A stretch of DNA of 41,568 nt from Candidatus Helarchaeota archaeon (lineage in GTDB: Archaea > Asgardarchaeota > Lokiarchaeia > Helarchaeales > RDOG01): assembly GCA_019058315.1 (NCBI GenBank), contig JAHPZH010000003.1, positions 1 to 41,568 on the forward strand, given 5' to 3'. Below, piece after piece: positions 2,259 to 19,541 of this stretch. Position 1 is the stretch's first letter. Each line of letters begins with the position of its first letter. The position numbers and the translations under genes were made by a program. The notes beneath the pieces were generated by a model. It saw only the letters and a program-made list of their open reading frames with translations, was not told where the DNA came from and did no database searches.

Positions 2259-2765
2259 ATGACATGTGAGAGTTGCGAAAGAGATAATCTTGAAAAATGC
2301 TATTTCTGTCGAGAATGTTATTTTCAAGCATTGTCAAGAATTCAAAATCTTTCAATTGTTCAGATAAGAAATAACTTGACTTGTGATGAATTATTTCCTG
2401 AGACAGTTCAAACTCGAATGGGAGATTATCTAATCAATGAAGTAAATGAATGCCTACGTTGTTTAGACAACGGACTATGGACTGCTGCAACTTGTATGAG
2501 TGCAAGAATTTTTGAAAATCAATTGAAATATTATGTTCGGAGGAACTATAATAGATATTTTGAAAGCATATTTGCTTGTATAGATTTTTTAGAAAGAATG
2601 GGTTATCCTGATTATAATATAGAGAAATTCGATAGTTTAAGAAGATTGAGGAATGATGCAATGCATGCAACATACGAATTCAATCAAGACGATTCTATTT
2701 ACACTGCTAAACTAGTTTTTCAACTCACTCTAACGATTTTCAGCTCAAAACCACAATTATATTAA
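2259..2765 (+). CDS. Cys-rich N-terminus plus HEPN (DUF4145-like) domain protein
   Basis: CESC...CYFCREC; AATCMSARIFE helix and RRLRNDAMH (Rx4H) motif; ATG 2259 preferred to TTG 2247. Confidence 0.75.
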   Translation: MTCESCERDNLEKCYFCRECYFQALSRIQNLSIVQIRNNLTCDELFPETVQTRMGDYLINEVNECLRCLDNGLWTAATCMSARIFENQLKYYVRRNYNRYFESIFACIDFLERMGYPDYNIEKFDSLRRLRNDAMHATYEFNQDDSIYTAKLVFQLTLTIFSSKPQLY

Positions 2766-2857
2766 TATGGATTTTGATTGAATTTAGGAACATTCTTCAA
2801 ACAATTTAAATATCATAAAAATATTAAAGAAGTGAAATTAAGATGTAAAGACTCATT

Positions 2858-3853
2858 GTGGTAGTTTTTTATATGGATAACGAGCTTCTCGAGAAATTAA
2901 AGAGTGTATTTGATAATCTTTTTTCTAATAGTGAATTTAAAAAAATTTTAGAAAATATTGAAAATAAAAGTGCAATTGATGTAATCACAAATTTTCAACA
3001 AATAGGAATATCATACTTTTTTCAAGATATGCCGAGATTTATCGATCTTTTGGAATTTTATAAATACTTTATTTTAAATGCTGATAAAAATTTTATAAAA
3101 AGTAATATTATTGACAGAAAAATCTACGATAATATAGTAGAAAATGTGAAAAAAGCATTAAAAATCAATTCATCTGAAGTAAAAAGAATTTATCTATCTT
3201 ATAAGAATTCTTTTAAATCAAAATATCCAGTTGTAAAATTAACTGAAACTCTTCTATTTTATCAGAAACTTTTTCCAAATTTGCTGGAATTATCCAAAAA
3301 TACCACTCTAACTGACTTTTCTGATAAAGTTTATGAAATCTTTATTGAGACACTAGAAAATAGCGAACAAGAAGAATTTATGGCTTATATTTTTGATTGG
3401 CTTTTAAAATTTGGATATCTTGTTGAAGGATTCTTAATTGATATCTTAAGAACAGAATTACAATTTCATTATTTATTAAAAAATATAAAATATTCATACA
3501 AAAGAATAATGAAGATGAGATTTTATCAACTTCTAAATGAACTTAGAGAAGACCATACTTTAAGGAATTATAGAAACGCAATTTTTCACACAAATTTCAT
3601 CATTGAATATCAAGTTAATCCAGAAGAAAGAAAAATTATTTTTCTCACTTTAAAAAATGTTAAGAAAGAAATAACCATTAAAAAATTTATTGAATATTAC
3701 TTTAGATTGATTCAAGTCGTTCAATCGTATCAATTGGCATATACTTATGCAGTACCCTTTTCTATGCGAGAAGATGGTCAAATACAATTAATTGAAATAC
3801 TTGATGGATTGATCAAAGAATTAAAAGAACTTAATTCGAAATCGGAAAAATAG
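2858..3853 (+). CDS. Helical protein with C-terminal HEPN-like motif
   Basis: LRNYRNAIFH (Rx4H); likely start ATG 2873. Confidence 0.65.
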   Translation: MVVFYMDNELLEKLKSVFDNLFSNSEFKKILENIENKSAIDVITNFQQIGISYFFQDMPRFIDLLEFYKYFILNADKNFIKSNIIDRKIYDNIVENVKKALKINSSEVKRIYLSYKNSFKSKYPVVKLTETLLFYQKLFPNLLELSKNTTLTDFSDKVYEIFIETLENSEQEEFMAYIFDWLLKFGYLVEGFLIDILRTELQFHYLLKNIKYSYKRIMKMRFYQLLNELREDHTLRNYRNAIFHTNFIIEYQVNPEERKIIFLTLKNVKKEITIKKFIEYYFRLIQVVQSYQLAYTYAVPFSMREDGQIQLIEILDGLIKELKELNSKSEK

Positions 3854-3911
3854 AAGTAATTATAATCAAGGATTTAATCTTTAATTATGTTTAATAATTA
3901 GTGAGTAAAAT

Positions 3912-4382
3912 TTGATTATTTTTCATGTGATAGGTCTCCATTGTGCTGGAAAATCTACATTCATCAAGGAAAAATTTCTAGATGCAGTAGTCCTGGATAT
4001 GAAAAAATTCTATAAAACTCATGACTTCCTACCCGCAACCTCCTATCATGACAGGACCGCACATACATTAGAACATGAATTTCAAGATTGCCTGAAGGAG
4101 GCTAAAAGGAGCAATAGCATTATGGTCGTGGAGAGTTCGGGGACAAATTTGAGGGTGAATCAATTGGTGGCGGAACATAACCATATCACCATCTTGGTCG
4201 TAACTCCCTTGGAAATTGTGAAGGAACGGATTAAGAAGGAGAAAGAGCCGGAGTTTGACGCGGAAACGCTGAACAACGTGGTATTAGAGGGGCTGGCAGC
4301 GGGGAGGTTGCAATATGATACGAAATATTTTACTCAGTTGGATAGATTTTATCCCGACTTGAAAATAAATGAATTTGAATAA
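3912..4382 (+). CDS. P-loop nucleotide/polynucleotide kinase-like protein
   Basis: N-terminal Walker A GLHCAGKST, VVLD, lid-like TPLEIVKERI; high GC. Confidence 0.75.
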   Translation: MIIFHVIGLHCAGKSTFIKEKFLDAVVLDMKKFYKTHDFLPATSYHDRTAHTLEHEFQDCLKEAKRSNSIMVVESSGTNLRVNQLVAEHNHITILVVTPLEIVKERIKKEKEPEFDAETLNNVVLEGLAAGRLQYDTKYFTQLDRFYPDLKINEFE

Positions 4383-4411
4383 ATCTTTTTACACATTTTT
4401 AAAAATTTGAA

Positions 4412-4453
4412 TTTTCGGATCGGTTACGAAAACTTTTTTAACCGGTTCGAAAA
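4412..4453 (+). promoter_or_regulatory. Inverted repeat enclosing a BRE/TATA-like element upstream of the PLD-fold gene
   Basis: TTTTCGGATCGGTTA / TAACCGGTTCGAAAA, 15-bp stem with two G-T wobbles, around CGAAAACTTTTT; ATG at 4464. Confidence 0.5.
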
Positions 4454-4463
4454 AGTATAAATT

Positions 4464-5588
4464 ATGAACAATAAAATTTACAATTATTTAGAAAAGACTT
4501 TCTCTGACCAATCTATTGCTTTTGTCGAACTGGATAAAGTTTCAAAAGATTTAGAAATAACTTCTTATAAAGTAAAAAAAGGGATTGAGAATTTTAAAAA
4601 ATTTACATTAAACCAGATAAATCCCCCTCGTGGACCTTATATTATCACAAGAACTAAAAAATTCGACCAATACGATTTAATATCATACATTTTTCATCTC
4701 AGTGCAGCAGTGTCACCGACTAAAGGAGAAAAAGGGGGAAATATTAGCATAGAACAGAGTTGGGATGAAAATAATAATAAAATTATCAAATTAATGTTAA
4801 AATTCGAGAAACCAAGATACCCTTTCTATATATCAGTTAAAATCATAGAGAGTTATGTGGAATCGAGTTCTCTAGAACTAAAGATAGGTTCTGAGATACA
4901 AATGAATGCAAACGATGCTGAATCACAGTATGTATTCAAAGGTTGGGACTCAAATACTTTTGAATTTACAAAAAGAATAATTGAAGAGAAGCTCAACAAA
5001 TGGTTGATAAAGCGAAAAAACTTTAGGGTTTATGATGCAGCTGAATTCGATAGAGAAATTATTAAAATGAAATTCTTAGAAGAAAAAGATTATACACCTC
5101 AATTAAATGAATTAATCAAAGACTTTAAAAGGAAATTTTTAGAAAAAAAGGATTTTACATCTCAATTAAATGAACTAATTAAAGATTCTTCGGAAAAAAT
5201 TTATTTAACGACCACTTCTTTAATAAAATTTGATATTTTTAACAATCTGTTAAATAAAAAACTTAAGAATCCCGAAATTGATATAAGGATTTTGATCTAT
5301 GTATCACCTGTTATAAAGGTTCAGAAACTTGGAGATTTGATTAAAAAACTATCTGAAGCCGGTATAAAAGTCAAACCTAGGTCATTCGATTCTAACCATA
5401 TTTCATTAATTAGTGAATTAGGAGAATTAAGGGGTCGTCTAAACATTACTGCACCTAACGCAACTACTCTTGATGACATAAATAATTCGAATATTACCTC
5501 AAATCTTGATCTAACCTTTTTTGAAAAAGACTTTTTTAAAATAAAAAGGGATATTTTATTATTTGAGCGAATGTGGGAAGAAAAATAA
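4464..5588 (+). CDS. Protein with C-terminal degenerate PLD-like fold (no HKD motif); possible N-terminal winged helix
   Basis: ELIKDSSEKIYLTT, IDIRILI, LSEAGIKVK and FERMWEE follow the PLD/TrmB-C pattern; HxKxxxxD absent. Confidence 0.55.
   Translation: MNNKIYNYLEKTFSDQSIAFVELDKVSKDLEITSYKVKKGIENFKKFTLNQINPPRGPYIITRTKKFDQYDLISYIFHLSAAVSPTKGEKGGNISIEQSWDENNNKIIKLMLKFEKPRYPFYISVKIIESYVESSSLELKIGSEIQMNANDAESQYVFKGWDSNTFEFTKRIIEEKLNKWLIKRKNFRVYDAAEFDREIIKMKFLEEKDYTPQLNELIKDFKRKFLEKKDFTSQLNELIKDSSEKIYLTTTSLIKFDIFNNLLNKKLKNPEIDIRILIYVSPVIKVQKLGDLIKKLSEAGIKVKPRSFDSNHISLISELGELRGRLNITAPNATTLDDINNSNITSNLDLTFFEKDFFKIKRDILLFERMWEEK
5070..5186 (+). repeat. In-frame tandem duplication, 63-nt period
   Basis: KFLEEKDYTPQLNELIKD / KFLEKKDFTSQLNELIKD, starting at 5070 and 5133. 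Confidence 0.9.
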
Positions 5589-5597
5589 AGAAATTTA

Positions 5598-6584
5598 ATG
5601 TGTTTTCTTATGTCAAAAAATAAAATAATTCGTAAATCTTTAATAGAAGATTTATACCATCATTTCAATAAAAAAATTAATTTTTTGACAAAAGAAGAAA
5701 AAGACTTAATTGAGAACTTTAAATTTAATCAAAGAATTGATACTTATTTTATTGTCCGAGATGTAGAACACAAGAGACATAAAAATAGGGATACTTATTT
5801 TTTATTGATAACCTTACAAGACGTAACAGGTGAGTTTGTTGCAAAAAAATGGGATATGCCCTATCATAAAGCGAAGGGGATTTCGGATGAAATTAAAGGA
5901 AAAATTATTAGAATTAGCGGAATCATTCGAGAGTTTAATGATAGTCTCTATATTGAAATAGACAAGGATAAAGAAATAGAAATTTTAAGTCCAGATAATT
6001 GTAGCGTTGACTTATTGAAAAAGTCAGTAAAAAAATCTCCCGATTATCTACTAGAGCAAATTTTCTTAATAATAGATAATGAGTTAGATGATGATGATTG
6101 GAAAAAACTCGCTAATGCAATACATGAAGATGATAAAATTTGTGAACGTCTTAAAATTGCACCTGCATCCACAAAATTTCATCAAAATTATAGTTCTGGA
6201 TTAATCGAACATATATATGAAATGTTAAAGAAGTTTCTAGATGAAATAAAAAATAATAATTTGAATTGTAACAAAGATTTAGTTATTATGGCAATATTAA
6301 CACATGATATTGGGAAAATTGATTCGTATGACGGATTAGATTATTCATATAAGATAACTAAAAAAGAAAAAAAATGGGGTCATTCTTTAATTAGTATCGA
6401 AATTGTCCTAGAAAAGATATTAGGGATTGAAAATTTTGATGAGAATAAAAAAACGGAATTAATCTATTTAATTGAAAATCATATGAAGAATAAAGTGAAT
6501 TATAAAGATTCTGTGACAAAAGAGTTAAATATATTACGATTATTAGATTCTTACAATGCAGGAATGTCCAAATTTAGACTTTGA
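5598..6584 (+). CDS. YhaM/Cbf1-like OB-fold plus HD-domain 3'-5' exoribonuclease
   Basis: OB fold (LQDVTGEFVAKKW), PASTKFHQNYSSGLIEH, THDIGK, GH and terminal D. Confidence 0.85.
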   Translation: MCFLMSKNKIIRKSLIEDLYHHFNKKINFLTKEEKDLIENFKFNQRIDTYFIVRDVEHKRHKNRDTYFLLITLQDVTGEFVAKKWDMPYHKAKGISDEIKGKIIRISGIIREFNDSLYIEIDKDKEIEILSPDNCSVDLLKKSVKKSPDYLLEQIFLIIDNELDDDDWKKLANAIHEDDKICERLKIAPASTKFHQNYSSGLIEHIYEMLKKFLDEIKNNNLNCNKDLVIMAILTHDIGKIDSYDGLDYSYKITKKEKKWGHSLISIEIVLEKILGIENFDENKKTELIYLIENHMKNKVNYKDSVTKELNILRLLDSYNAGMSKFRL

Positions 6585-6955
6585 ATGTGAGGGATAGATT
6601 GTCAGAAGAAAAGGAACTCATTATAGAGTTCGAGAAATATAGGAAGAATAAAATTGATAATTTCAAGAATGAGTATAAATCACGTCTTAAAGATCGGTTC
6701 CGCTTTTTAGTAGATTTAATAGTCAATAAAATCCCCTTGGACTCGGCTGTGGATTTCAAGGGGTTGAATGGGATGTGTAAATGTGGAAAAAAAATAAGTA
6801 AGGGGTCTTTATACAAGGATGGCACGGTCGTGGGGTCAACCTGTGCAAAAACTTTAAGTGATATTGCCTCCGAATTTTCAATGGTTGAGCAATTTATTTT
6901 ATTAAAAGAAGAGGAATTAAATAGAAAATTAAAAGAATTAAGAGAAAGAATATAA
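6581..6955 (+). CDS. Small Cys-motif coiled-coil protein
   Basis: CKCGKKI...VGSTCAK; TTG start overlapping upstream TGA (TTGA) suggests translational coupling. Confidence 0.65.
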   Translation: MNVRDRLSEEKELIIEFEKYRKNKIDNFKNEYKSRLKDRFRFLVDLIVNKIPLDSAVDFKGLNGMCKCGKKISKGSLYKDGTVVGSTCAKTLSDIASEFSMVEQFILLKEEELNRKLKELRERI

Positions 6956-6972
6956 ATAATAAAAGGGATAAT

Positions 6973-7806
6973 ATGGGAGATTGGAAGACCAAATTAATAA
7001 AATTTCAAACATTACTGGATGATATCGGAAAATCTAGAGGAAATCTAAAATTCGATAAGAGTTTTTTGGCAGTTCACGAACTTGCAGATCAGACCTTTTG
7101 TGAGAAAGCAGCCGAATTAACACAAGCATTAGCAACAACCGAGGATTTTCAACCAACCGAGCAGCAGCTGGTCGGGAAGATGTCTCACGAAAAGTTGACT
7201 GAAGATGGCGTCCCAATATCTTTCTTAAATATTTGGAAGGAGATATATGAAAGGAAGAATTGTTATGTTCATGAGATGTTGTTGGCAGCTAATTATCAAG
7301 GAGTGGGAATATTGGGCAAACCAGACTTGGTCTACTTCGAGAGTGCTGTTCCTCGCTTCATTTTCGAATTTAAATTCAGTAAGCATTACAAGCCTTTTGC
7401 TAATTACCATGTGCAAGCACAAGTCTATGGTTACCAATTGAACCAAATGGGGTTTGACACGACGGACCTTTTTTACGCGTTCATAATTGCAAAACCAAGG
7501 TGGAAAAATAACATTGAATTCGTAAAATTAATACCAAAAAGGACAATGGAACGATTTCACAAGGATAAGCTATACGAACTAGACCAGAGCATGATGACTT
7601 TCAATAATATCGGAGTATATATAAATAAGTTCATTCCAGAAAAAGCGATAAAAGAATTAGACTTTTGCCTAGGTTATTGGTTGGATAAGAGGAAAGCCAT
7701 ACCGACACAGAATAAGAACAAGTGCAGGAGTTGCAAGGTCAAGAAGCATTGCAAATTTTATTTAATGAGACAAGATTGGAAAGGAAGGAAGTTTTATGAT
7801 AGATGA
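6973..7806 (+). CDS. Solo Cas4/Exo5-like PD-(D/E)XK nuclease with Fe-S cysteines
   Basis: FCE, GxxxH (GKMSH), GKPD, EFK, QAQVYG, C-terminal CRSCKVKKHC. Confidence 0.85.
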   Translation: MGDWKTKLIKFQTLLDDIGKSRGNLKFDKSFLAVHELADQTFCEKAAELTQALATTEDFQPTEQQLVGKMSHEKLTEDGVPISFLNIWKEIYERKNCYVHEMLLAANYQGVGILGKPDLVYFESAVPRFIFEFKFSKHYKPFANYHVQAQVYGYQLNQMGFDTTDLFYAFIIAKPRWKNNIEFVKLIPKRTMERFHKDKLYELDQSMMTFNNIGVYINKFIPEKAIKELDFCLGYWLDKRKAIPTQNKNKCRSCKVKKHCKFYLMRQDWKGRKFYDR

Positions 7807-7822
7807 GAGGATAATTATACCC

Positions 7823-8941
7823 TTAGAAAATTTCATTTTTAAGATAGTCAGATAAAAAATCATCCAACAATGCTTCTCCAACCGATATTGGATACCATTT
7901 TCTACCCCAATCCGAATCAAGGTAAAATCTAAGATAGAAATCAATACTGTAAATTCCTTCATCCTCCCATATAAACAATCTATCAAGAAATCCTTTAATG
8001 GCTAACTCCCTAGTATTAGGAGTAAAGGGTGAAAAATCAATATTATTAATGATTTTTTTAAATTCTCTAGTCCATTTGGCTTTAAATTTTATACTCATAT
8101 CCATGATATAGGTAAAATCCTGCGTAAAATCCTCCAATTTTTCATTTAAAAATGGATATTTGTCTTTATTAATAAAATAATATTCTAATAATTTATTAAT
8201 AATGTAACTGTAAGTATTATTTCTCGTGATTAATTCATTATGTAAAAAAGTCTCTCTTCCTAACTTTTTTTCTAATTCTATTATCTCCTTATTAAGTTTT
8301 TTAGAATTGAAATATAGACCATCAAAAATATAACCAAAAAAGAGTTCCTTTGCAACTCCTCCATAATCCTTAAAATAAATTCTGGGAACGTACCAACTTC
8401 TTAATGCAAGCATTAGTTCACCAGATAATTCTTCTAACGAAAAGAGGACTTTATTATGTTTAACATTATAATTGAAAAAACTCGCCAAAAAATCTTTTAA
8501 AATTTCATTTAAATTTTCTGATGGATTTCTATAATTTTCTCTTAATTCTTGAATCTCTTTGTTAATTTTCTCTTTCATAGTTTTAAACCTTTTTTTAGAT
8601 AATTTATATTTTAAGCTATTGATCTTTTTTTGAATTAACTCTTGATATTGGATTATAATTGCTGACTCTTTAAATTCTTGAATAAAAGATTCCTTAAGGT
8701 CATTAACATTAAGCTCAAGTGATTCTCTTAATTGATAAAGAGAAGTTAATTTTCGGAATATTAAAATATACAACATTTCTTGAAAATGGTCATACTTATG
8801 TCTTTTAAAAAAGGGTCTTTTCTTTTTTCTATCATTTCCTCGTAAATAAATCAGACTTTTTATTTCATTATTTAATATTGGCATTAATGGATGATAGATT
8901 TCAAAATTCCCTAATTCTTCTTGGGATTCATAAGGACTCAA
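7823..8941 (-). CDS. Hypothetical helical protein
   Basis: 372-codon ORF in very AT-rich DNA, TTG start, GTGAT SD-like motif upstream; no motif recognised. Confidence 0.7.
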   Translation of the reverse strand: MSPYESQEELGNFEIYHPLMPILNNEIKSLIYLRGNDRKKKRPFFKRHKYDHFQEMLYILIFRKLTSLYQLRESLELNVNDLKESFIQEFKESAIIIQYQELIQKKINSLKYKLSKKRFKTMKEKINKEIQELRENYRNPSENLNEILKDFLASFFNYNVKHNKVLFSLEELSGELMLALRSWYVPRIYFKDYGGVAKELFFGYIFDGLYFNSKKLNKEIIELEKKLGRETFLHNELITRNNTYSYIINKLLEYYFINKDKYPFLNEKLEDFTQDFTYIMDMSIKFKAKWTREFKKIINNIDFSPFTPNTRELAIKGFLDRLFIWEDEGIYSIDFYLRFYLDSDWGRKWYPISVGEALLDDFLSDYLKNEIF

Positions 8942-9352
8942 TATTAATCACTTTTTTTATACTTTTTAAAAAAATTTTTGAATTATTTTTTAATATTTTC
9001 TAGTAATTTTTTATATATATATATTTTATATTAGACCAAATATAAGAAAATTCTTATTTTATGAAATTTTTTTTACTTTTTAAGAATTTAAAGTTGAAAA
9101 TGATAAGATTTCAAGATATTATAGCCAATTAATTAAGTAATCATGAGTTTTTTTGATTTAAAAATTTAGCTTCAATAAAAGAATCGATAAAATCCATTGA
9201 TTCTCTAATTCTTTATTAAAATCATAATAATTAAAAAATTAAAATTTTTTTAAAATTTTCTAAATTGTTTTAAAGAGATTTCTAAGGCTTTCCGCGTATT
9301 TTTGAGAGTTCGGGGATCGGTCAGCTTTATATATAACCGCTAGTTATAATTA

Positions 9353-9385
9353 TATAAAAAAATATAAAAAAATATAAAAAAATAA
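9353..9385. repeat. Short tandem repeat, about 3 copies of a 10-nt unit (TATAAAAAAA), directly before the start codon
   Basis: tataaaaaaa tataaaaaaa tataaaaaaa taa then ATG 9386. Confidence 0.7.
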
Positions 9386-10078
9386 ATGGTAAATAAGATG
9401 AAAAAGAATAAATCTTTCCAAAAAACTATCGATCAATATCAAATTGCAATCTGGACAACATGGATTCGAGATTTAATGACATCTGAAGATTGTGAGCTTA
9501 AACTTTGGAAGAAAGCACATGGTTTTAAAGAAGAAATCAAGTCTCAGTGGCCTGTTATATTCAAATTAAGGCATGATTCATTGGTTAGAAAGACTAAAAA
9601 GGTATTTCTAAGAAAAAACCCAGGATATAGCCCTAAATCTCTGAGAATCAGAGTAGATTTGGCTCCCATCTTAAAGGCGAATGGCTATTGTACTTATTAT
9701 GATAAAATATTGATAACTGGAGTTACTGATTGTACTTTTCTTAATGATGGAAAACTACTTAATATTGTAAATGCCGAAATTAAGACAAGTTCTTTCGCGA
9801 CAAACAAACAGGAGTGCCAAGCCATAATCTATGATTATTTACTTGGGTATCTATATCCTAACTCGAAGAGAAAATCGATATTGGTATCTATTGATAATAG
9901 CGGAGAATTTCTGATACAAGAGAAAATTTTCAATTTAACTAAATATGAAGATCTGATTCTAGATGCTATCGCTTATCTTTCGTCTCCGAAACCTCCGAAA
10001 CCACTTGAAATCGAGCTTTATAAAAAGCCAATGTGTAATTGGTGCGGGTTTATTAACTGTAAGTTACGAGGAGTTTAA
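9386..10078 (+). CDS. Second, divergent Cas4-like PD-(D/E)XK nuclease
   Basis: Early Cys (CELKL), RH, GVTD, EIKT, QAIIY, C-terminal CNWCGFINC. Confidence 0.75.
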   Translation: MVNKMKKNKSFQKTIDQYQIAIWTTWIRDLMTSEDCELKLWKKAHGFKEEIKSQWPVIFKLRHDSLVRKTKKVFLRKNPGYSPKSLRIRVDLAPILKANGYCTYYDKILITGVTDCTFLNDGKLLNIVNAEIKTSSFATNKQECQAIIYDYLLGYLYPNSKRKSILVSIDNSGEFLIQEKIFNLTKYEDLILDAIAYLSSPKPPKPLEIELYKKPMCNWCGFINCKLRGV

Positions 10079-10121
10079 TTTAGGATATTCAAACGCATAG
10101 AATATCCACTAAATTTTTTTT
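10077..10121 (+). terminator. Stem-loop followed by a T tract after the Cas4-like gene
   Basis: AATTTAGGATATTC / GAATATCC(AC)TAAATT, then a T run. Confidence 0.5.
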
Positions 10122-10133
10122 ATTAAGAAAAAT

Positions 10134-10388
10134 GTGGAAAGAATCTTGAATTTAGATCAACTTTATAAAATTGTTAAGAATGCGATAATAAGAGAGATAG
10201 AGGGAATTAAGACTCTTAACTTAGTTTATGAATTTAGCGAAAAATCTGCCTTATTAGATTTTTACTATAAAAATTATCTTAAAGAGAGTTTTGATATAAT
10301 AAATTCTCTTATTAAGGGGTTTAACGTGCTGATGCGGAATGAGAGACTAACAAGGGATAAAGATTATCACCTTTCAATTTATTCATAG
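10134..10388 (+). CDS. Short hypothetical protein, possibly the 5' part of a decayed gene
   Basis: 84-aa ORF; another frame stays open to about 10513 (PFNLFIDRDSPRGIVNING...). Confidence 0.4.
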   Translation: MERILNLDQLYKIVKNAIIREIEGIKTLNLVYEFSEKSALLDFYYKNYLKESFDIINSLIKGFNVLMRNERLTRDKDYHLSIYS

Positions 10389-10774
10389 ATAGAGATTCCC
10401 CAAGAGGTATAGTAAATATTAATGGTATCCTCAAACTGCGGGTGCAATTACGAGTTAAATTGGATAAATTGATAATAGATTTTTGTGAATATTATTCGTT
10501 TCATTCAAATTAATTAAGAATCAAGGTTAGTAATCTATTATATAAGCGGAAGTCATAATTAGATGGAGTATTTAAATTGGCTAGTGAATTAAAAAATGAA
10601 TTTTGAAAAAAAATTTTTTTTCAAAGAAAAAAGTCGGGTTAGAAGTTAAAATTAAGTTTGATTACAATAAAAATCCGTTAGAATTATAAATAATGAGTTT
10701 TTGAAGATCAATAACTCATTCTATTTATTGGTAATCTGCAGCTACCGACAAAAAAGAATGAATAACTTGTATCA

Positions 10775-11959
10775 GTGACATCCTTTAACTCAAAAATAAA
10801 GGTGATTAATTTGAATAGTTCAAGTATAAAAGATGAATTACAGAATAATAATTTAGATTTTGAGCACCATCCAATTGTACCAGCATTATTTGATTATCGA
10901 AATTACAAAAATTATATTAATAAATTGTTTAATAAAAATTTAAAAGGATTTTTGAATTATGAAGGCTTCGATGTAAAGCGCCCTGGAGATATTTTTTGGA
11001 GAATTGTCGAAAAAAAACCAGTTAATAAGGATATATATTATCAATTAGCTCGATTTTTTACATTTAAAATAAATTCGCATATTGCGGTTAAAGAAGGAAA
11101 ATTAGATGAGGCATATGCAAAATTAGAATTAGAATGGTTCGATTATTTAAACGAAAATTTCTTTTTCCCTTATTGTCTTAATTTTGATGATAATTTCTAT
11201 AATGATCTAATGAATTATTGCCTCTCAGATGCTAGAAATTACTCTTTAGTCTTAGAAAATGATGTAGATGCTCTAGCAAAGTTAAATGATCTTGCCAAAA
11301 CTGGAAATATCGTAAAATTCTTTCCAAAATTTAAAGAACAGTTTACCAATCAATATATTATGTTTGAGCGTATTAGTTTAAAACTTGGGACAAAAATTAG
11401 CGAAATTCTTTATCGTGATTATTATTTTCGACAAAATACATCCAAAAAACCTTTAAAGAAACCACCTAGAGCTCCGAAAAATATTGAAGATGTTTATCAT
11501 TTATATCCAAATCCTAGCTCAAGAACTCCAAAGACAAAAGACTGGAATCTTTTCACCCTTTTAAAAAATTTGAAACACATCAAAAATTCTATTGGCTCTC
11601 ACAAGGAATTTCAATATCACCCCTTACTTAATCCTAGTGAGGTAATCATTGAAGACTTTGATCCTCGTAAAAATCAAATAACTTTTAGAGAAAATTTCAA
11701 TATTCCGAAACTACAGACATATATGCAAAGTCTTCTTTTTTTATATAAAGGTTTTAAGCATATTAGCATGTTTTATTCGATTATAACTCCATTACTTAAA
11801 CAGTACGCTCCTAAAAAACCACTTCTTATTCAATGTCCTTGTTGTTATTTCCTATTTAATTCCTCTGTTAAACCAACTCTTAAATTTTTTACTGTTATAT
11901 GCCCAAATTGTTTTTGTATTTTTCAATTTTACCGTCCTATATTGATGATATTTAAGTAA
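10775..11959 (+). CDS. Hypothetical protein with a possible divergent HEPN segment and C-terminal zinc ribbon
   Basis: LKHIKNSIGSH resembles RNx4H with R to K; C-terminal CPCC...CPNC. Confidence 0.6.
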   Translation: MTSFNSKIKVINLNSSSIKDELQNNNLDFEHHPIVPALFDYRNYKNYINKLFNKNLKGFLNYEGFDVKRPGDIFWRIVEKKPVNKDIYYQLARFFTFKINSHIAVKEGKLDEAYAKLELEWFDYLNENFFFPYCLNFDDNFYNDLMNYCLSDARNYSLVLENDVDALAKLNDLAKTGNIVKFFPKFKEQFTNQYIMFERISLKLGTKISEILYRDYYFRQNTSKKPLKKPPRAPKNIEDVYHLYPNPSSRTPKTKDWNLFTLLKNLKHIKNSIGSHKEFQYHPLLNPSEVIIEDFDPRKNQITFRENFNIPKLQTYMQSLLFLYKGFKHISMFYSIITPLLKQYAPKKPLLIQCPCCYFLFNSSVKPTLKFFTVICPNCFCIFQFYRPILMIFK

Positions 11960-12000
11960 TTCTGAAGAATAATAATGGAAAGCTTGAGAAGGTTAAAAAA

Positions 12001-12510
12001 ATGCTTATACTTGAATGCATGTCAAATGAAGAAACACGAAATGAGGGTCGTGTCGTATACAATTATTTAAATATGTTTCATGACCTTCCAGTTGAACCAA
12101 GACTGAAAAGAGTTTTAACTAAAAAAAGCTTTTTACAAACTCTTGAATACTCAAATGAAAATTTTATTCACGTTTCTACACATGGAAGCAGAGAAAAGGA
12201 ATCATATTATATTGATTTACCCAATGGTGAAGTATATCCTGAAGATTTTGAAGATTTTGATTTTAGTAATGTTCAAATTATTTTTACAGGTTGTCTTTTA
12301 GGAAGAGGTGATTTTGCTGGAAGAGTTTCCTATATCACAAAAGCAAAATATTTAATTGCTCCATTTAATAATATATCATTTGTTAATTCTGCGACATTTT
12401 GTATACTTTTCTATTATCACTTGTTTACTCGAAATTCTCTGTCTTTTTCAAGAAGTTACACATGGGTTGCTAAAAGGTTACCTGTTAAAGGAGCATTGCG
12501 TTTATATTAA
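12001..12510 (+). CDS. Stand-alone CHAT/caspase-like protease domain
   Basis: FIHVSTHG and IIFTGC match the His-Gly and Cys dyad motifs of the caspase/CHAT fold. Confidence 0.75.
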   Translation: MLILECMSNEETRNEGRVVYNYLNMFHDLPVEPRLKRVLTKKSFLQTLEYSNENFIHVSTHGSREKESYYIDLPNGEVYPEDFEDFDFSNVQIIFTGCLLGRGDFAGRVSYITKAKYLIAPFNNISFVNSATFCILFYYHLFTRNSLSFSRSYTWVAKRLPVKGALRLY

Positions 12511-12536
12511 GGAACTTTAAAATAAATCATCTTGTC

Positions 12537-12582
12537 AAATGAAAAATATGAAGGACGAGAATATTGATTTTTGGAAAAATCA
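12537..12582 (+). repeat. Direct repeat copy 1: orphan duplicate of the RNase III gene 5' end
   Basis: 43/46 nt identical to 19653-19698; encodes MKNMKDENIDFWKN vs MENIKDENIDFWKN. Confidence 0.9.
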
Positions 12583-12588
12583 ATCGTT

Positions 12589-14373
12589 TTAGATTTTATT
12601 CTTAATTTTTTCTAAAATTTCAGTAATCTCTGAAGGGGTTTTATTGAGGTTCTTCATTTTAAAAGCTATTAGATTTGCCAATTCTCCTTTTCTAACCCCA
12701 AAATGTTGAGCTAATTTTCCAAGTATTAACTTTCCACTTAATTCCTTTAATGATTTTTCTTTATCTTTTTGAATTTCTTTCAGCTGAATTATTGTTTCAT
12801 TATAAATTTTCTTTAATCTATCAGACTTTTTTTTGCACACAATTGAGAATTTCTTTAATAGATCATCTAAATCATCCCATCCTTCTGAAAAATAAAACTT
12901 TGTCTTATCTTTTAACCTTAGTTGTATTTCATCTGTTAAAGTATTAGAGTTTTCAATAATAGTCTTAATTAATTCTTCGATATTCTCCTTACTTTTTATT
13001 TCTTTTTCTTCAATTCTTTTTTTACCTGGGATAACTTTTAATGCTTCATAAATTACTCCCGAATCTAATAATAAATAATTCTCAATGCATGTTCTGGACC
13101 AAATAAAACAATATTCTTTATTTTTTTCAGGGGGCTCTCGATCTTTATCAATAATTGCACAAATACCAAAACCATTTTTTCTGAGTTCATCAATTACTTT
13201 ATCAAAAATTTCAGTGAAAAGTAAAATCTTACCTTTTCCTTCTAAGGATATTAATGTCAAATTGTCCTCAATATCAGGATCTAATAATCTTAATATCTCA
13301 ATATCGCTATTTCCTTCTAATAATAAAAATGGTCTATTTAAAGATAAGTATGGTAGCCCTATGTCTCCCAGGAATGTTTTGATCAAATCTAAGTTCTCCT
13401 GTTCAATAACAAATTTAATAATCTGGTTTCCATCTTTTACTTGATCCGGGAAAACCATAAAATAAAGCTCATTTGCTTTTGCTTCGTTTATTATTGTTGC
13501 AGAATGAGTGGCAATGAAAATTTGTAAATTTTCTCTTCTCTCCTCAGCTAATTTGATTTCATTTCGTAAATATGATAAAAATTTTTTCTGAAGTAATGGA
13601 TGTAAATAAGCTTCAGGACTATCAATTAAAAAAACTAAATCTTGATTTGGTAATCTTTTGCCAATCGCTCTGAAATATATGTTTTCAATTTTTTTTTCAA
13701 CAAAGGGAAATAAAATTGCTATTATATCCTTTTCTCCAGAACTTAACTGGTCAAATTCTACTTTATTTCCTGATTTATTTAAAAAATATATGTTATAATA
13801 TCCTTCAACACTAAGTTCTACACCATCAAACTGAAGTCTTGGTAATAAGTTTTTGATAAAGATTCTAAATGGTTCAAATAGGTCTTTGGGAACTTTACCC
13901 TCTGGAATTTTCCCCCCATATTTATTAAATACATCTTCTAGAAGAAGAGAATGACGATTTTTTATTTCTAATAAGGTTATTTTTAATCCAGCATAAGGAG
14001 CAAAGTCTGGTAATGATTTATCTCGGAAATCCATATTTCTAAAGTAATTAGGCATTCTTACTGGAGTACCTCCAGTATCAATATAATAATCAATTCTTGC
14101 AAGAGTATCGATATATGTTCCATATGGTTTAATAGATAATAAGGATTTATGTAATGGAAAATTCATTGGTGTTCTATATGGAGAAATATAGATGATTTTT
14201 CCTGTACCCTCAACAATGACTTTCTCTTGCTGAACTATTTTTCTTAAGTTATCTAACAATGTGGATTTTCCAACGCCATTTGCACCAGCTATTATATTTA
14301 GGGAGTTAAGATTTTCTGATTTAGCAAGTTTTATCGGTCCCAAATCACTTATTTGAAACTTTTCAATAGGCAT
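12589..14373 (-). CDS. OLD-family ABC-type ATPase plus TOPRIM nuclease
   Basis: GANGVGKST, LSSGE, LIDSPEAYLHP, ATHS, TOPRIM LLEGNSD and IIDKD. Confidence 0.9.
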   Translation of the reverse strand: MPIEKFQISDLGPIKLAKSENLNSLNIIAGANGVGKSTLLDNLRKIVQQEKVIVEGTGKIIYISPYRTPMNFPLHKSLLSIKPYGTYIDTLARIDYYIDTGGTPVRMPNYFRNMDFRDKSLPDFAPYAGLKITLLEIKNRHSLLLEDVFNKYGGKIPEGKVPKDLFEPFRIFIKNLLPRLQFDGVELSVEGYYNIYFLNKSGNKVEFDQLSSGEKDIIAILFPFVEKKIENIYFRAIGKRLPNQDLVFLIDSPEAYLHPLLQKKFLSYLRNEIKLAEERRENLQIFIATHSATIINEAKANELYFMVFPDQVKDGNQIIKFVIEQENLDLIKTFLGDIGLPYLSLNRPFLLLEGNSDIEILRLLDPDIEDNLTLISLEGKGKILLFTEIFDKVIDELRKNGFGICAIIDKDREPPEKNKEYCFIWSRTCIENYLLLDSGVIYEALKVIPGKKRIEEKEIKSKENIEELIKTIIENSNTLTDEIQLRLKDKTKFYFSEGWDDLDDLLKKFSIVCKKKSDRLKKIYNETIIQLKEIQKDKEKSLKELSGKLILGKLAQHFGVRKGELANLIAFKMKNLNKTPSEITEILEKIKNKI

Positions 14374-14420
14374 TCTTGAACACCTAAACCATTTTTAAAG
14401 CTAATAAAAGTTTTTATTAT

Positions 14421-15770
14421 TCATTTAGATAAAATTGAATCGACTTTTAGGTTTAAATTTTCTATCTTTTTCTCAATATCATTTAATTTATTTTGAATTG
14501 CATAAAATTTGTAATTAGGTAAAGTAGATAAATAATAATCATAGTTCCATTCATTTTGTAATAAATCCATTATTGTTTCGACATAGAGATTATAATTTTT
14601 AATAGTCTCAACATCTGCTTCTGAGAAATCATAAATTGCCTGAAATTCGCAACTAAGACCGATATTACTGTATTTTTCCATTAAACTTTCTTGAGTTTCA
14701 AACTGTTTTAATAAATTATCATCAGTTATTGCCATTCTTGACGGATGAAAGAAATCCAAACCTTTACTATATCTAGAAAAGCGAAAAATGAATGTTAGCT
14801 CGATTATTTCATTTTTTAAAATTAACTGTGATTTATTCCCCTTATTATCAAATTTAATTTTTAATTCCGTATCTGGGGGAACATAGAAACCAAAAATACT
14901 CAATGGATAATAAATTTCTTTAATATTCCATGATAATGACTCAAGAATTGAATTCTTTGGAGGTAAAGGTATATTATCAATAGAAATTCTTAATTTTTTA
15001 ACAGATGTATCTAATGGACCATATCCTGTGGATCCCTTATCTCTTCTAATTATACTTAGCCAAGAATGGCTAAAAACCTTTGAAAATGAATTTATAAAAG
15101 CATAGGGAGTGATTTCAATAAATAAAGGAAATAAATTTTCATTTTTTTCGTAAATCATAGTTTGAACCTTTTCATTAATCTCTGCTAAAGATATATCATA
15201 GTCAAACACATATCTAGGTTGTTCATCTTGAATTAATATTTGAAAAGGATCTCGAGAAAAATTAAGAACTATTTTAAAATTATATGAAAAATTAGGATTA
15301 TCTTCATATTTGAATAACCAATATAACTGCCCATCTCTGACTAATCTTTTACCATGACTTGTACGAATATAATAGATTCTACTTTTAATCTCTGGTCCAG
15401 TTCTTGATACAATATATGCATGAGGAATATTCTTTCGCTTTGGTATATTTATAATTAAAACATCGCCTTTATCGTTCTGTAAGAATTCAGTAGAACATTC
15501 AATAACTGGACTAATTTTATCCTGACAAATATTATCGATTAATTGTTTATCTAGATCTACGTTGAAAATATCTTTCCCTTCAAAATTTCCATCATCTTTA
15601 ATGCCTAGTATTAGCTTTCCACCAAATTTATTAGCAAAAGCTACGATTTCATAAGCTAAATTCCTTTGGCCTTCTTTGGTTCTTAAAATAAGTGATTGTT
15701 TTAATTCATTTTTTAAATTTTCTTTGTCTTTTTTTTTCAAAATTTCATTTAATTCATCATTTGTAGTCAT
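14421..15770 (-). CDS. Schlafen/AlbA_2 domain protein with uncharacterised C-terminal domain
   Basis: ENLKNELK, EIVAFANKFGGKLILGIKD, YYIRTSHG. Confidence 0.85.
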   Translation of the reverse strand: MTTNDELNEILKKKDKENLKNELKQSLILRTKEGQRNLAYEIVAFANKFGGKLILGIKDDGNFEGKDIFNVDLDKQLIDNICQDKISPVIECSTEFLQNDKGDVLIINIPKRKNIPHAYIVSRTGPEIKSRIYYIRTSHGKRLVRDGQLYWLFKYEDNPNFSYNFKIVLNFSRDPFQILIQDEQPRYVFDYDISLAEINEKVQTMIYEKNENLFPLFIEITPYAFINSFSKVFSHSWLSIIRRDKGSTGYGPLDTSVKKLRISIDNIPLPPKNSILESLSWNIKEIYYPLSIFGFYVPPDTELKIKFDNKGNKSQLILKNEIIELTFIFRFSRYSKGLDFFHPSRMAITDDNLLKQFETQESLMEKYSNIGLSCEFQAIYDFSEADVETIKNYNLYVETIMDLLQNEWNYDYYLSTLPNYKFYAIQNKLNDIEKKIENLNLKVDSILSK

Positions 15771-15856
15771 ATTTCTTTGTGCTCCTATATAGTTAAATCA
15801 TATTGAAAATATCTTTAATTTAAATTGAAATAATTCATAATAGTAATCATCTAATT

Positions 15857-17230
15857 TTAGACTCTTTGTCTTAACATTTTCGAAACTTCATCATTAACTG
15901 TCTGTAATGTCATGTTATATAAATTAAATATTTCATACAAAGGATCTAGTAAATTTTTAACGATTTCTGGGAGTATATTATTAATTCTTTCAGCATTTGT
16001 GATTGTTTTTAATTTTATATTATCTTGGTGACTTCGATGATAATCAAAGAATGGTCACCTTAATGAACTTTGTATACTTTTCAATACCCTGTTATTTAAT
16101 CCTTCATACTCTACGTAAAATAATATGGAATCGTTCTCAACATTTAAATTATTAACCAAACGCTTTGCATGAAGTAAACATTCACCAATTCTCCATATTT
16201 GTAGAATTGGATCTAAAATTGTTCCCGATTCAAATTGATCAGTACTATCTTCTTGGTATCCTCTTACTAAATACATAAATCCGTTTGGAGATGCTCTCCA
16301 ATAGTCTGACTCTGCTGGAATCCCATTAAAAATTGGACCAAACCAACATTCAATAACTCCTTCTACTGTATAAGGTTGTGCGTTAGGAAAATTTGACCAC
16401 ATCCAAGGAGGCCAACCTGTAATATTTGATTCGGTATGAATTAAAACATTTCTAAAATCTCTTAGATTTAATATTTCAAATTCTCCTTTTACTTGATATG
16501 CAACAACATATTTTCCTCTATTGTAAGGTGAAGAAAATGGTAAATCACTTAATAATGATTCTACTTTTTCATTTGATTGAGTATTCCAATTTTCAAGTTC
16601 ATTCCATTCATAATCTTCGGATGGAGTAGTTGATGAAAGATTTGTAACGTTTAACAATATTTCTCTTATATTATTGATTAGTATTTCTCTATTTGCTTGA
16701 ATACAACGATTTATTAATTCATTCCACTCATGTGCTGTTTGTGGAGGTTCGCTTCTAGGACCAGGGCGTCTTGTATAATATTTATTGGCTTGAATATATT
16801 GCTCATTTGGACCACTTCTTTTCGAACGGATTGGTACTCTATGACCTCCTGGTATTCTGATTATTGGAAATTTTATACCTTCTATTGGATGTTCTATATG
16901 ATAAATTTCACATTGAAATGTGGGATCTGCATATCGTTCTATGATACCTTGAATTCTATCAAAAGTACATTCATTTAAATATCTATTATGCTCTTGAGAT
17001 TCAGGAATTGATGGAATCAAGTCATTACCCTCTTGTTCAAAACCTAGAAGAATATAACCACCACCATAATTTGCTAAAGCTAACATTGATTTAGCTAAAA
17101 CAGCTTGGTGTTCAGTTGTTGTTAATTCGAGCCAATTTTTAACTTCTATATCAAGTTTTTCAATTGGATAACGAAGCAGTTCTTTTAAACGTCTTGTAAG
17201 GTCACTAATGATTGAATTATTAATTGTCAT
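15857..17230 (-). pseudogene. Schlafen/AlbA_2 domain protein interrupted by one in-frame TGA (16055-16057); nonsense allele or readthrough
   Basis: EKLDIEVK, LALANYGGGYILLG; after the TGA the frame continues for 65 codons (PFFDYHRSHQD...ILPEIVKNLLDPLYEIFN...RQRV) to TAA at 15857. Confidence 0.75.
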
Positions 17231-17626
17231 TTATTTAACCGTTATATTTTATACATAATAAAATTGAAACTAAAAGTTGAATGAAACTAAAGAATTTTGA
17301 ACTATGATTCCCAAATTTCAAAGTTCCATCGAGATTTCAATTATTGAGAGTAAAAAAATTGTAAATTTTTCGACTTTATTAACACAATCCTCATTTATAT
17401 ACTTTTGGAAAATTTAACTATATTTTTGTCGGTTAATGATATAAATTGCTTTTTTCTCTTTCCCATCTAAATAATTTGATATAGAGCGACATAAAAAAAT
17501 CATATATGAAAAGAATTGTAGTGAATTGTTGTTTTTTATGAATGTTTAAATTTAAATGGGGGAGTAAAATTTATCCTGACTTAATATTTAAAGAACTAAA
17601 AAATATTTATTTAAAATCATTGAATA

Positions 17627-18697
17627 TTGATTCTGTTGAGGAGATATACTTTGAAAAAAATTTTTAAAATTGAACAGATTCAAAAATTTAAAGAATGGAA
17701 AAGATTTCTTAAGACAAAAAAAGCTCTAAGGTGGGATAAAGAAGAAAAAGAAGCCGAAGTGAAAATTAATAACATTTTAAAAACTAAAAACTTTCAAAAT
17801 GGTGGTCCTCTATCAGAATCCGACCTAGATGAAATTTTTAGACTAATGAAAGCATTTAGTACTAATCCGATCTTAGGAAAAAATCTGTATGAATTAAATA
17901 CATTAAAGAAATTTTCAGATAAGTTGAGAGATTTATATTATGGTAATAGAGAGCTTCCAGACAGAGTTCAAGACTTTTTGAGTCTTAAAAATGTCAAAGT
18001 ATTCACATTATCTCATTTTTTATATGCCTTTGATTCAAAGCAGTATCCATTATTATCTCGATTCTCAAGACCATATTTTGGCTTAAATAAAGACCAAGAA
18101 GATTTGGCTTTAGATCTGGCATTAGATCGTTTTAAAATAAAGCCCATTTTTAAATATACATATCATACGAGAAAATACCTTAAAGATGTTATTATCTATG
18201 AAGAATTAAAAGAGTTATTAAATTTAGATAATTACCGTCAACTTAACGATCTATTTTGGCTTGCATATGAAAAAAAGGAGGAAATCCCTAAAATTTTAAA
18301 AATGGGATTTGAGATAGAAAAACATCTTGAAGATTTTATTGAACATAATTGGTCAAATATCGATTGGGGTTCTAATCTTGAATTATATACGATAGGAGAC
18401 CAAACTGGACGACAATTCAAGGCAGGTAAATGGAAAATAGATTTTTTAGCAATAGATGTAGATACAAATGATCTTGTTGTTATAGAATTGAAAAGAGATA
18501 AACCAAGTAGTAAAGTTTTGGAACAAGTATTGAAATATATAGCTTGGGTTAAAAAATATATTGCTACTGGATCTCAAAAAGTCAGAGGTATTATTATTGC
18601 TAATAGAGGTGATAGAGACTTAAAGTTAGCTTTAACAACTTTGGATCACGTAGAAATAAGATTATTCGAAATAAATTTTAGTCTACAACCCTATTAA
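17627..18697 (+). CDS. Endonuclease with C-terminal NucS/DUF91-like PD-(D/E)XK domain
   Basis: EKHLEDFI, GRQF, IDFLAID, VVIELKR, QVLKYI, VRGIII; helical N-terminal domain; start uncertain. Confidence 0.8.
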   Translation: MILLRRYTLKKIFKIEQIQKFKEWKRFLKTKKALRWDKEEKEAEVKINNILKTKNFQNGGPLSESDLDEIFRLMKAFSTNPILGKNLYELNTLKKFSDKLRDLYYGNRELPDRVQDFLSLKNVKVFTLSHFLYAFDSKQYPLLSRFSRPYFGLNKDQEDLALDLALDRFKIKPIFKYTYHTRKYLKDVIIYEELKELLNLDNYRQLNDLFWLAYEKKEEIPKILKMGFEIEKHLEDFIEHNWSNIDWGSNLELYTIGDQTGRQFKAGKWKIDFLAIDVDTNDLVVIELKRDKPSSKVLEQVLKYIAWVKKYIATGSQKVRGIIIANRGDRDLKLALTTLDHVEIRLFEINFSLQPY

Positions 18698-18902
18698 ACC
18701 AAATTGCAATATGATATGAAATATTTCACTCAGCTAGATAGATGATTATTATTTATTTTGGAGTTTTGTCTCCAGATATGCAAAAGAAGATTGACTGGAG
18801 AAGAATAAAATAAAAGACCACAAACATAATATCAAAAAGGATAGGCGTTGGCGGGAATTATATGATGAGAGAGAAGGATTAGAGGGAACCAAAGTTATTA
18901 GG

Positions 18903-19541
18903 ATGTTAGAAGGATTTAATAACTCCATGTATATTCTTAAAAAGAATTATGAAATATTATTTAAAGTTATTGAATTATATAAAAGTAATCCTGAGTACTT
19001 TTTTGATAATGAAAAGAGGGGTGAATTTTTCAACGAGTTTTCGAGATGTCTGCATAATTATTTGGCAAGTATATCTTCTTTAGTCGACCATATCCGGGTT
19101 ATCCGAAAACAATTAAATAATTTAGAATTGGATGAATGGTCTAAATTAAATCTTTCAGAATTAAAAAATAATGATATTATTGTCTTTCTGCAAAATTTAC
19201 GTAATTACACTCAACATTATAAGTTACCATTGGTTAAGGCAACTATTTCGTTCACTCCAGATGGTTCTAAAGCACAAGAAGGAACTATTGATACTAATTT
19301 AGTATTATCAAAGGTAGAATTATTAAAATGGGATTCTTGGGGTGCAAAATCTAGAAAATTCATTGAAAACTCAGAAGAAAATATTGATATGGAAAAATTA
19401 ATTGTTGAATATCAAGAAATTATTTCAAAAAATTATAATGAATTTATTGAAAAGGTTCGTGACTTATACTCAAAACAAATAAAGGAATTTGAAGATATTA
19501 AAGCTGAAATGAAGCGAAAGTTTCATGATACGAGATATTAA
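18903..19541 (+). CDS. HEPN-like protein
   Basis: LHNYLASISSLVDH and LRNYTQH (Rx4H); frame is open upstream to CTG at 18795. Confidence 0.75.
   Translation: MLEGFNNSMYILKKNYEILFKVIELYKSNPEYFFDNEKRGEFFNEFSRCLHNYLASISSLVDHIRVIRKQLNNLELDEWSKLNLSELKNNDIIVFLQNLRNYTQHYKLPLVKATISFTPDGSKAQEGTIDTNLVLSKVELLKWDSWGAKSRKFIENSEENIDMEKLIVEYQEIISKNYNEFIEKVRDLYSKQIKEFEDIKAEMKRKFHDTRY

Follow-up and report, generated by a model that had tools for sequence, protein, structure and literature searches.

A probable lineage-specific island of immune-type nuclease genes, marked by recombination scars, at the start of a Helarchaeota contig

The first 41.6 kb of contig C11 (JAHPZH010000003.1) from the genome of a Candidatus Helarchaeota archaeon (GenBank assembly GCA_019058315.1; 5.79 Mb, 12 contigs, ~28% G+C) were analyzed, and this whole stretch of 41,568 nucleotides is referred to as the window. 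The region extending from position 1 to ~21.6 kb is probably a lineage-specific accessory island that was built by repeated recombination and that carries independent immune genes of the sensor-plus-nuclease kind. It includes ~22 open reading frames (ORFs) separated by mostly short intergenic gaps. The evidence consists of the domain identities of the encoded proteins, the catalytic motifs that they kept, their accessory distribution, the existence of paralogous islands with exchanged cargo in the same genome, and several recombination scars. From these observations we infer that the island genes may be expressed and active in this archaeon and may protect it. A previous sequence-only reading of positions 2259-19541 had proposed an RNase-heavy defense island in an Asgard-like genome. 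The latter label agrees with the origin of the homologues of the island proteins, whose source metagenome-assembled genomes (MAGs) are named Promethearchaeia or Lokiarchaeota. The stretch was reproduced without differences in the contigs of one DNA run, probably that of the source sample.

The island is variable among relatives. Two segments, 1-20000 and 19500-39499, were compared at the DNA level with 30 relatives, and the protein-level comparison covered 150 other genomes of the class. Segment 1-20000 had no meaningful DNA match in the relatives, just chance matches of 25-90 nucleotides (nt) in AT-rich sequence. Each of the 30 had strong matches to segment 19500-39499, and these began with the enoyl-CoA hydratase gene at ~21.6 kb and continued from there onward. 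The proteins were nearly unmatched at the class level: the PARIS protein AriAB had three weak matches, the protein encoded at 18903 had one, the protein encoded at 4464 had two that were marginal, and the Cys-motif protein encoded at 6581 had none (genes and proteins are named by their coordinates, Table 1). The mini-RNase III gene had no orthologue in the 30 relatives. The sequence-only reading would have been contradicted by genes that are core and syntenic across relatives, and these genes were neither. The region thus combines the two properties that define a defense island, variability among relatives and enrichment in defense genes, and known defense families are among its products.

The left half of the island is organized around a backbone that is present three times in the genome: once in the window and twice elsewhere, at C11:734-742 kb and C2:3-9 kb. 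Common to the copies are a 52-amino acid (aa) Zn-ribbon gene, a 1312-family gene, a P-loop kinase gene, and a 124-aa Cys-motif gene, and the paralogous copies are 84-99% identical in amino acid sequence over their full length. The slots between these genes hold different cargo. The slot between the kinase and Cys-motif genes is occupied by the 4464/5598 pair in the window and in C2, with 97% and 92% aa identity, and by Shedu in the C11 paralogue, where the SduA_C nuclease was identified at L013:9754-10365 (+), equivalent to C11:740754-741365 (E 2.5e-19), with a Schlafen gene just downstream. The slot between the 1312-family and kinase genes holds two HEPN genes in the window and an unrelated 319-aa gene in the C11 paralogue. 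Taken together, the paralogous islands elsewhere in the genome carry Shedu, TIR, and further Schlafen/HEPN genes. Judged from the sequences compared, the triplication of the backbone in this genome and the exchange of the slot with Shedu are new here, as are the sensor domain that Schlafen 2 shares with a TIR fusion and the scars left by recombination in the form of repeats and gene relics (both described below). Makarova et al. are said to have described defense islands in 2011, and the P2/P4 hotspots with exchangeable cargo are reportedly where PARIS was found. As in such hotspots, the window has conserved flanking genes and slots that hold different defense genes in each copy (Shedu versus the phospholipase D (PLD)-like/YhaM-like pair). 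Unlike in those hotspots, the copies are paralogous loci within one archaeal genome instead of alleles among strains.

The backbone genes have additional copies or fragments in the genome. Six copies of the 52-aa CxC...CxC gene were located (four in C11, one in C2, and one in C1); the protein is nearly invariant, and the AT-rich region upstream is conserved. In several cases a copy of this gene heads an accessory stretch. The C-terminal module of the 1312 protein recurs in two further ORFs near C11:737699-738622 and in weaker matches on C5, C9, and C3, and the 1312-family copies in the C11 paralogous locus are partly fragmented. This module of ~45 aa, a CPSC...CEHC zinc ribbon, is attached to varied N-terminal parts (C11:735770-738622, C5, C9, and C3), and one of the ORFs that have it carries leucine-rich repeats. 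Fragments of the kinase gene were found on C2 and C10.

The right half of the island includes the recombination scars. A 46-nt direct repeat brackets a 7.1-kb cassette composed of the genes for AriAB, both Schlafens, the PDC-S02-like protein, and the third HEPN protein. The right copy of the repeat is the start of the mini-RNase III gene, and the left copy duplicates it with sharp edges. No recombinase gene was found inside the cassette, and no credible joint representing an excised or empty form across the repeats was found in the contigs of the source run. A second scar is a relic of the kinase gene: 40 nt from its 3′-end persist here, and they connect this half of the island with the backbone type of the left half. 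A third one derives from an acyl-CoA-dehydrogenase-like gene, of which the final 37 codons are left; an intact 404-aa relative of this gene is located near the end of C3 (C3:1480331-1481545). The stop codon and the last codons of the 18903 HEPN-like gene fall inside this relic. The left boundary of the island is not covered by the window, and an assembly branch marks the start of the contig. The branch is shared with C6 (window 1-169; C6:1-169) and joined to C4, and the last 55 nt of C4 (C4:1-2526) are identical to the starts of C11 and C6. C4, with a length of 2.5 kb, encodes a 703-aa Zn-ribbon HerA/DUF87-type ATPase, and C6 runs into the TFE and MCM genes.

A structure of this kind could also be the remnant of a lineage-specific mobile element (plasmid, virus, or transposon-like) that multiplied in the genome, and the nucleases would then be cargo serving inter-element competition or addiction. 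The three backbone copies and the lack of the Cys-motif gene in the 150 genomes of the class are consistent with such an origin, as are the six copies of the small Zn-ribbon gene, the sharp-edged repeat around the cassette, the contig start beside the ATPase on C4, and a weak Prim-Pol match in the paralogous locus. We consider this origin unlikely. Family searches found no integrase, transposase, capsid, terminase, or replication initiator in the island, and neither a tRNA gene nor a tRNA target was found there. The backbone genes matched no known phage or satellite family, no relative of the 1312 protein was found in viral contigs, and the source-sample contigs had no excised or empty form. 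A provirus was also considered and rejected, since family profile searches found no phage hallmark gene in the island. The mobile element would in any case be compatible with an island of immune genes, because defense genes are often cargo of such elements.

Among the island proteins with recognizable relatives, the one described as an OLD nuclease in the sequence-only reading was confirmed as such and could be identified more precisely as a fused PARIS AriAB. It matched the PADLOC profile PDLC02981 in two stretches, the best of which aligned residues 149-592 with positions 249-692 of 694 (E 2e-75), and it also matched AAA_21 and AAA_15 (Pfam). Alignment with three distant Loki homologues showed that the Walker A motif (GANGVGKS) is kept, as are the Glu of the TOPRIM EG motif and the DxD motif (D-K-D). 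In this order of domains, an ABC ATPase with Walker A and then a TOPRIM domain carrying Glu and DxD, the protein resembles PARIS AriAB. Characteristic of PARIS are also a trigger in the form of viral anti-restriction proteins and the cleavage of tRNA. There was no Pfam DUF4435 match at E <= 0.01, although the PADLOC AriAB profile spans the AriB region. A 2026 study reported fused, shortened PARIS proteins from Asgard archaea (PMC13700489).

The presence of two Schlafen/AlbA_2 proteins was also confirmed. Both matched SLFN_AlbA_2, Schlafen 1 with 65.9 bits (E 6e-18) and Schlafen 2 with 30.2 bits (E 7e-7), compared with a Pfam cut-off of 25.3, and both kept the Ex4ExK motif, at residues 17-24 (14421 protein) and 24-31 (16055 protein), respectively. 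Schlafen nucleases are bacterial defense effectors with swappable sensors and a catalytic Ex4(E/D)xK motif, and 55 architectures of these proteins (pSlfn) have been published (Nat Microbiol 2026, PMC13056530). The two island proteins resemble them in having an N-terminal AlbA_2 domain with this motif, a non-catalytic C-terminal domain, and a known defense gene within 10 kb. They differ in that their host is an archaeon, in that Schlafen 2 stops 65 codons early, and in that the C-terminal region of Schlafen 1 is unmatched: it had no family match, and a PDB sequence search returned noise. The C-terminal partner domain of Schlafen 2 belongs to a widespread family whose usual fusion partner is AlbA_2, a pairing that is common in bacteria. 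World-wide, the domain is found mostly in AlbA_2 fusions and sometimes with TIR or HTH_XRE. In this genome it recurs on C1, fused to TIR_2, at L015:1916-3148 (-), equivalent to C1:6916-8148. The neighboring gene, L015:447-1799 (+), encodes a TIR_2 domain fused to a LeuA-type regulatory domain. The genome has five AlbA_2 genes, two of which are the adjacent genes in the island; two more are located on C1, where they are separated by ~2-7 kb from another gene, a paralogue of the 18903 gene.

Schlafen 1 is intact, and the reading frame of Schlafen 2 is interrupted by a TGA at 16055-16057, which is also present in an independent assembly of the same sequencing run. The gene is truncated or recoded, because the frame stays free of stop codons for 65 codons beyond the TGA, the paralogue on C1 aligns through this position to the end, and relatives with the same architecture have 445-465 aa.

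Three proteins had been described as HEPN-like on the basis of an Rx4H motif. The number of such motifs alone was not above chance, and the support comes from conservation within families: the motif is conserved in each of the three, although the fold and profile support is modest. The 2247 protein scored 20.8 bits with DUF4145, below the cut-off of 23.1; its paralogue at C11:733843-734355 passed with HepT-like (23.9 versus 23.5), and LRNxxxH and the Zn ribbon are invariant across three paralogues of this type. The 2858 protein has no Pfam match. Its family is small, 41 clusters among 1.84 billion representatives, and R239, N240, and H244 are invariant in 31 members. The AlphaFold2 (AF2) model (predicted local distance difference test score, pLDDT, 86) had HEPN toxins as its best structural matches, with 1jog at Z 7.1, 8xdj and 7ae2 at Z 6.4, and 5yep at Z 6.1, covering residues ~105-300. 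HEPN proteins are thus four of the five best chains, with modest Z values of just 6-7. The third one, the 18903 protein, has no Pfam match either, and relatives of it carry PF26900; R100 is kept in 13 of 14 sequences of its family and H105 in all 14. Its model is a four-helix bundle that matched HEPN toxins at Z 9.5-10.6 amid generic bundles, a result that is compatible with a HEPN fold but not decisive. Foldseek found no significant match in the PDB for the 2858 or 18903 models, PDB profile searches with both families returned noise only, and hhalign showed no relation between them.

The three families share with the RNases of the HEPN superfamily (the MNT-associated toxins 7ae2, 8xdj, and 5yep; DUF4145; AbiV/AbiD-type) the R-x4-H motif at a helix end and a helical bundle. 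In contrast to that superfamily, two of the three had no Pfam match, and a comparison of profiles revealed no similarity between the 2858 and 18903 families. The 2858 family differs from the HEPN toxins in an extra N-terminal helical domain, and the MNT antitoxin that accompanies the MNT-associated toxins is absent here. Four loci with homologues of the 2858 protein were recovered from reference genomes, in Promethearchaeia/Promethearchaeota MAGs and in one unclassified archaeal MAG. In two Loki MAGs, the gene is preceded by one for a conserved 222-aa protein (L047:4150-4818 and L048:4001-4669; 64% identical) that has a C-terminal winged helix and faint matches to Cas_APE2256 and HFX_2341_N (CARF-like). 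Other neighbors in the Loki MAGs include HEPN_AbiV, a STAND NTPase, and leucine-rich repeat proteins.

Several other nuclease assignments were retained in a narrower form. The YhaM-like exoribonuclease is a full-length relative of this family (NCBIfam E 1.6e-16; PDB YhaM E 1.4e-10), but it scored 60.3 bits with NF010007, far below the equivalog cut-off of 460, so the 5598 protein has the YhaM architecture without being an orthologue. The PLD-like assignment of the 4464 protein, encoded immediately upstream, is suggested by a weak DrmC match and a degenerate H-x-S motif recognized by eye; a PDB sequence search with this protein returned noise. Scans of metagenomes found no relative of the 4464 or 5598 proteins. 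The 4464 gene has an internal 63-nt tandem duplication at 5062-5185 (21 codons, 86-87% identity), which is also present in the C2 copy. The two nucleases described as Cas4-like had weak Cas4/PDDEXK_1 profile matches as well as PD-ExK and four Cys residues recognizable by eye. We call them Cas4-like and not Cas4 because the TIGR00372 score (19.8 bits) was below the cut-off of 65 and neither a CRISPR array nor a cas gene was found. For the NucS-like nuclease, the part that stood is the C-terminal PD-(D/E)XK domain, which matched NucS_C below the cut-off (22.6 versus 24 bits, residues 262-329 only); Pfam and NCBIfam searches found no N-terminal NucS domain. The better match of this protein, the product of the 17627 gene, is the PADLOC candidate PDC-S02: its C-terminal 130 residues align with the last 130 positions of that profile (E 2e-33), and its N-terminal 220 residues are unmatched. 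The mini-RNase III consists of the catalytic domain only, and about half of the 30 relatives carry instead an RNase III-like ORF of ~245 aa with 31-41% identity to it.

Proteins of these kinds could be expected in a cluster for housekeeping processing and repair of RNA and DNA, formed by RNase III, a YhaM-type exonuclease, a NucS-type repair nuclease, and RecB/Cas4-type nucleases. The named families include housekeeping members, and one archaeal class of OLD-family proteins (Cran1, class 5) has a role in the cell cycle, where it is conserved and essential (PMC12796447). Such a cluster is extremely improbable here and was rejected: none of the tested genes is conserved in relatives, the YhaM and NucS_C scores are below their cut-offs, and the RNase III of the relatives has ~245 aa and not 134. 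Cran1 is essential, conserved, and encoded in one operon with a membrane protein, whereas AriAB had weak matches in only 3 of 150 genomes and has Schlafen genes as neighbors.

Table 1. Coordinates of genes, repeats, and gene relics in the island (positions in the window; a dot stands for a feature without strand)
Feature	Position	Strand	Basis or remark
52-aa CxC...CxC small protein gene with AT-rich upstream region (from ~940)	996..1154	+	six genomic copies, 86-93% nt identity
Backbone gene with C-terminal zinc ribbon	1312..2235	+	98.7% aa copy at C11:737699-738622; no family match
Zn-ribbon + HEPN (DUF4145-like) protein	2247..2765	+	sub-threshold Pfam match and paralogue
HEPN-domain protein, small family	2858..3853	+	conserved motif and AF2 model
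Backbone P-loop kinase-like gene (AAA_33, below cut-off)	3912..4382	+	88% aa copy at C11:739661-740101
374-aa protein, putatively PLD-like	4464..5588	+	weak DrmC match and degenerate H-x-S read by eye; 97% aa copy on C2
YhaM-like OB + HD protein	5598..6584	+	HD dyad kept; 92% aa copy on C2
Backbone 124-aa Cys-motif protein	6581..6955	+	three copies in genome
Cas4-like PD-(D/E)XK nuclease with CX2CX5C motif	6973..7806	+	weak profile matches and motifs by eye
372-aa protein	7823..8941	-	no significant family match
Second Cas4-like PD-(D/E)XK protein	9386..10078	+	PADLOC Cas4 E 2.7e-6 and motifs by eye
394-aa protein with C-terminal zinc ribbon	10775..11959	+	reading as fourth HEPN unsupported
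169-aa orphan	12001..12510	+	CHAT-like reading unconfirmed
Left copy of 46-nt direct repeat	12537..12582	.	copy of mini-RNase III gene start, 93% identity, sharp edges
Fused PARIS AriAB (OLD-family ABC ATPase + TOPRIM), 594 aa	12589..14373	-	PADLOC profile
Schlafen 1: AlbA_2 with Ex4ExK + ~300-aa unrecognized C-terminal region	14421..15770	-	Pfam and motif
Schlafen 2: AlbA_2 with Ex4ExK + widespread sensor-type domain	15857..17230	-	Pfam; frame broken by TGA at 16055-16057
PDC-S02-like protein with C-terminal NucS_C-like PD-(D/E)XK domain	17627..18697	+	PADLOC and Pfam
40-nt relic of kinase gene 3′-end	18704..18743	.	90% copy of 4308-4347, directly after the 17627 stop codon
HEPN-like four-helix-bundle protein	18903..19541	+	four paralogues in genome, almost none elsewhere in class
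Relic, last 37 codons of acyl-CoA-dehydrogenase-like gene	19509..19619	+	62% over 37 codons
Right copy of 46-nt direct repeat	19653..19698	.	mini-RNase III gene start
134-aa mini-RNase III, catalytic domain only (no dsRNA-binding domain), accessory	19655..20059	+	family match

Two assignments of the sequence-only reading were not sustained. The 10775 protein had been taken for a fourth, divergent HEPN protein, which no family search supported; an Atlas search scored <=0.85. The 12001 protein, presented as a CHAT-like protease, had no Pfam, NCBIfam, PADLOC, or PDB match and no homologue in the length range searched, and a search of the genome with PF12770 (CHAT) found nothing. The sole lead toward CHAT is a language-model neighbor cluster in which 15% of the members carry this domain, and the reading is unconfirmed. 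The absence of a CRISPR array and of a DNA methylase from 2259-19541 was confirmed, and Rfam had no match in 1-22000. A class I S-adenosylmethionine (SAM) methyltransferase gene of the small-molecule type (TehB/TPMT-like) is located at 20079-20723 (+). It was considered as a restriction-modification methylase and discarded: the Pfam matches were to small-molecule types, and the PADLOC mad2 match (E 1.2e-20) covers the generic SAM-binding domain only. The enzyme is probably not a DNA methylase.

Several points weigh against the interpretation of the region as an island of immune genes. The nearest genomes compared belong to other genera, and the absence from relatives was consequently measured across large distances. 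Seven ORFs (1312, 4464, 6581, 7823, 10134, 10775, and 12001) have a weak family match or none. PDC-S02, which was predicted by PADLOC, did not protect in one published test (10.1101/2024.09.26.614923), and one archaeal class of the OLD family, Cran1, acts in the cell cycle and not in defense (PMC12796447). Gene relics are present at 18704-18743 and 19509-19619, and the TGA in Schlafen 2 lies 65 codons short of the usual end of the family. In AriAB, the Walker B motif (residues ~250-256) reads D-S-P-E, with Ser in place of the catalytic Glu, and the full Walker motif set of ABC ATPases is thus incomplete. ATP hydrolysis may be altered because the Loki homologues have D-E-P-E or D-E-A-E at this position.

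The signs of decay could mean that the region is a graveyard, a collection of non-functional leftovers of former defense genes with no present role. The TGA, which a second, independent assembly of the run also contains, the changed Walker B motif, the relics of the kinase and acyl-CoA-dehydrogenase-like genes, and the fragmented 1312-family copies in the paralogous locus are what such decay would leave behind. We nonetheless regard this as very unlikely. Most ORFs are long and intact despite a G+C content of 28%, at which stop codons arise easily; both Schlafens, the three HEPN families, and the TOPRIM and HD domains retain their catalytic motifs; and the proteins of the paralogous copies align over their full length with 84-99% identity. 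Within an island of immune genes, some members may be inactive, among them Schlafen 2 with its TGA and AriAB with its altered Walker B motif.

The mechanism that we propose for the island, by analogy with relatives that have been characterized, has each protein acting as a self-contained sensor-effector. Its nuclease would be kept silent and would be released only when the non-catalytic part detects a viral cue. The activated protein would then cut tRNA or other RNA, in the case of the PARIS TOPRIM, Schlafen, and HEPN domains, or DNA, in the case of the PD-(D/E)XK domains. Cutting would stop translation or replication, and the infection would be aborted. The island itself would grow and change by recombination between paralogous copies.

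The proposal that the island holds several undescribed systems proved to be overstated. Its strongest members have already been described (fused PARIS, bacterial Schlafen, and PDC-S02), and the partner domain of Schlafen 2 is widespread. The claim is further weakened by the CHAT-like and fourth HEPN assignments, for which no support emerged, and by the premature TGA, the changed Walker B motif, and the gene relics. The candidates for novelty that are left are the 4464/5598 PLD-like/YhaM-like pair, which occupies the slot shared with Shedu, and the 2858 HEPN family. A broader interpretation, possible but rather doubtful in our opinion, would make the three loci a lineage-specific platform for the exchange of cassettes, with this pair and the 2858 family as new archaeal defense systems. 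The small Zn-ribbon gene, the 1312-family gene, the P-loop kinase gene, and the Cys-motif gene may be the backbone of that platform.

Asgard archaea are the closest known relatives of eukaryotes, and Schlafen, TIR, and HEPN-type effectors have counterparts in eukaryotic immunity. In this one Asgard genome, the same sensor domain is coupled to a Schlafen or to a TIR effector, and one slot holds either Shedu or an uncharacterized nuclease pair. The island leaves the knowledge of these families unchanged. It offers testable candidates, namely the 4464/5598 pair, the 2858 HEPN family, and the two Schlafens, and it would illustrate the shuffling of archaeal immune islands in a concrete case.

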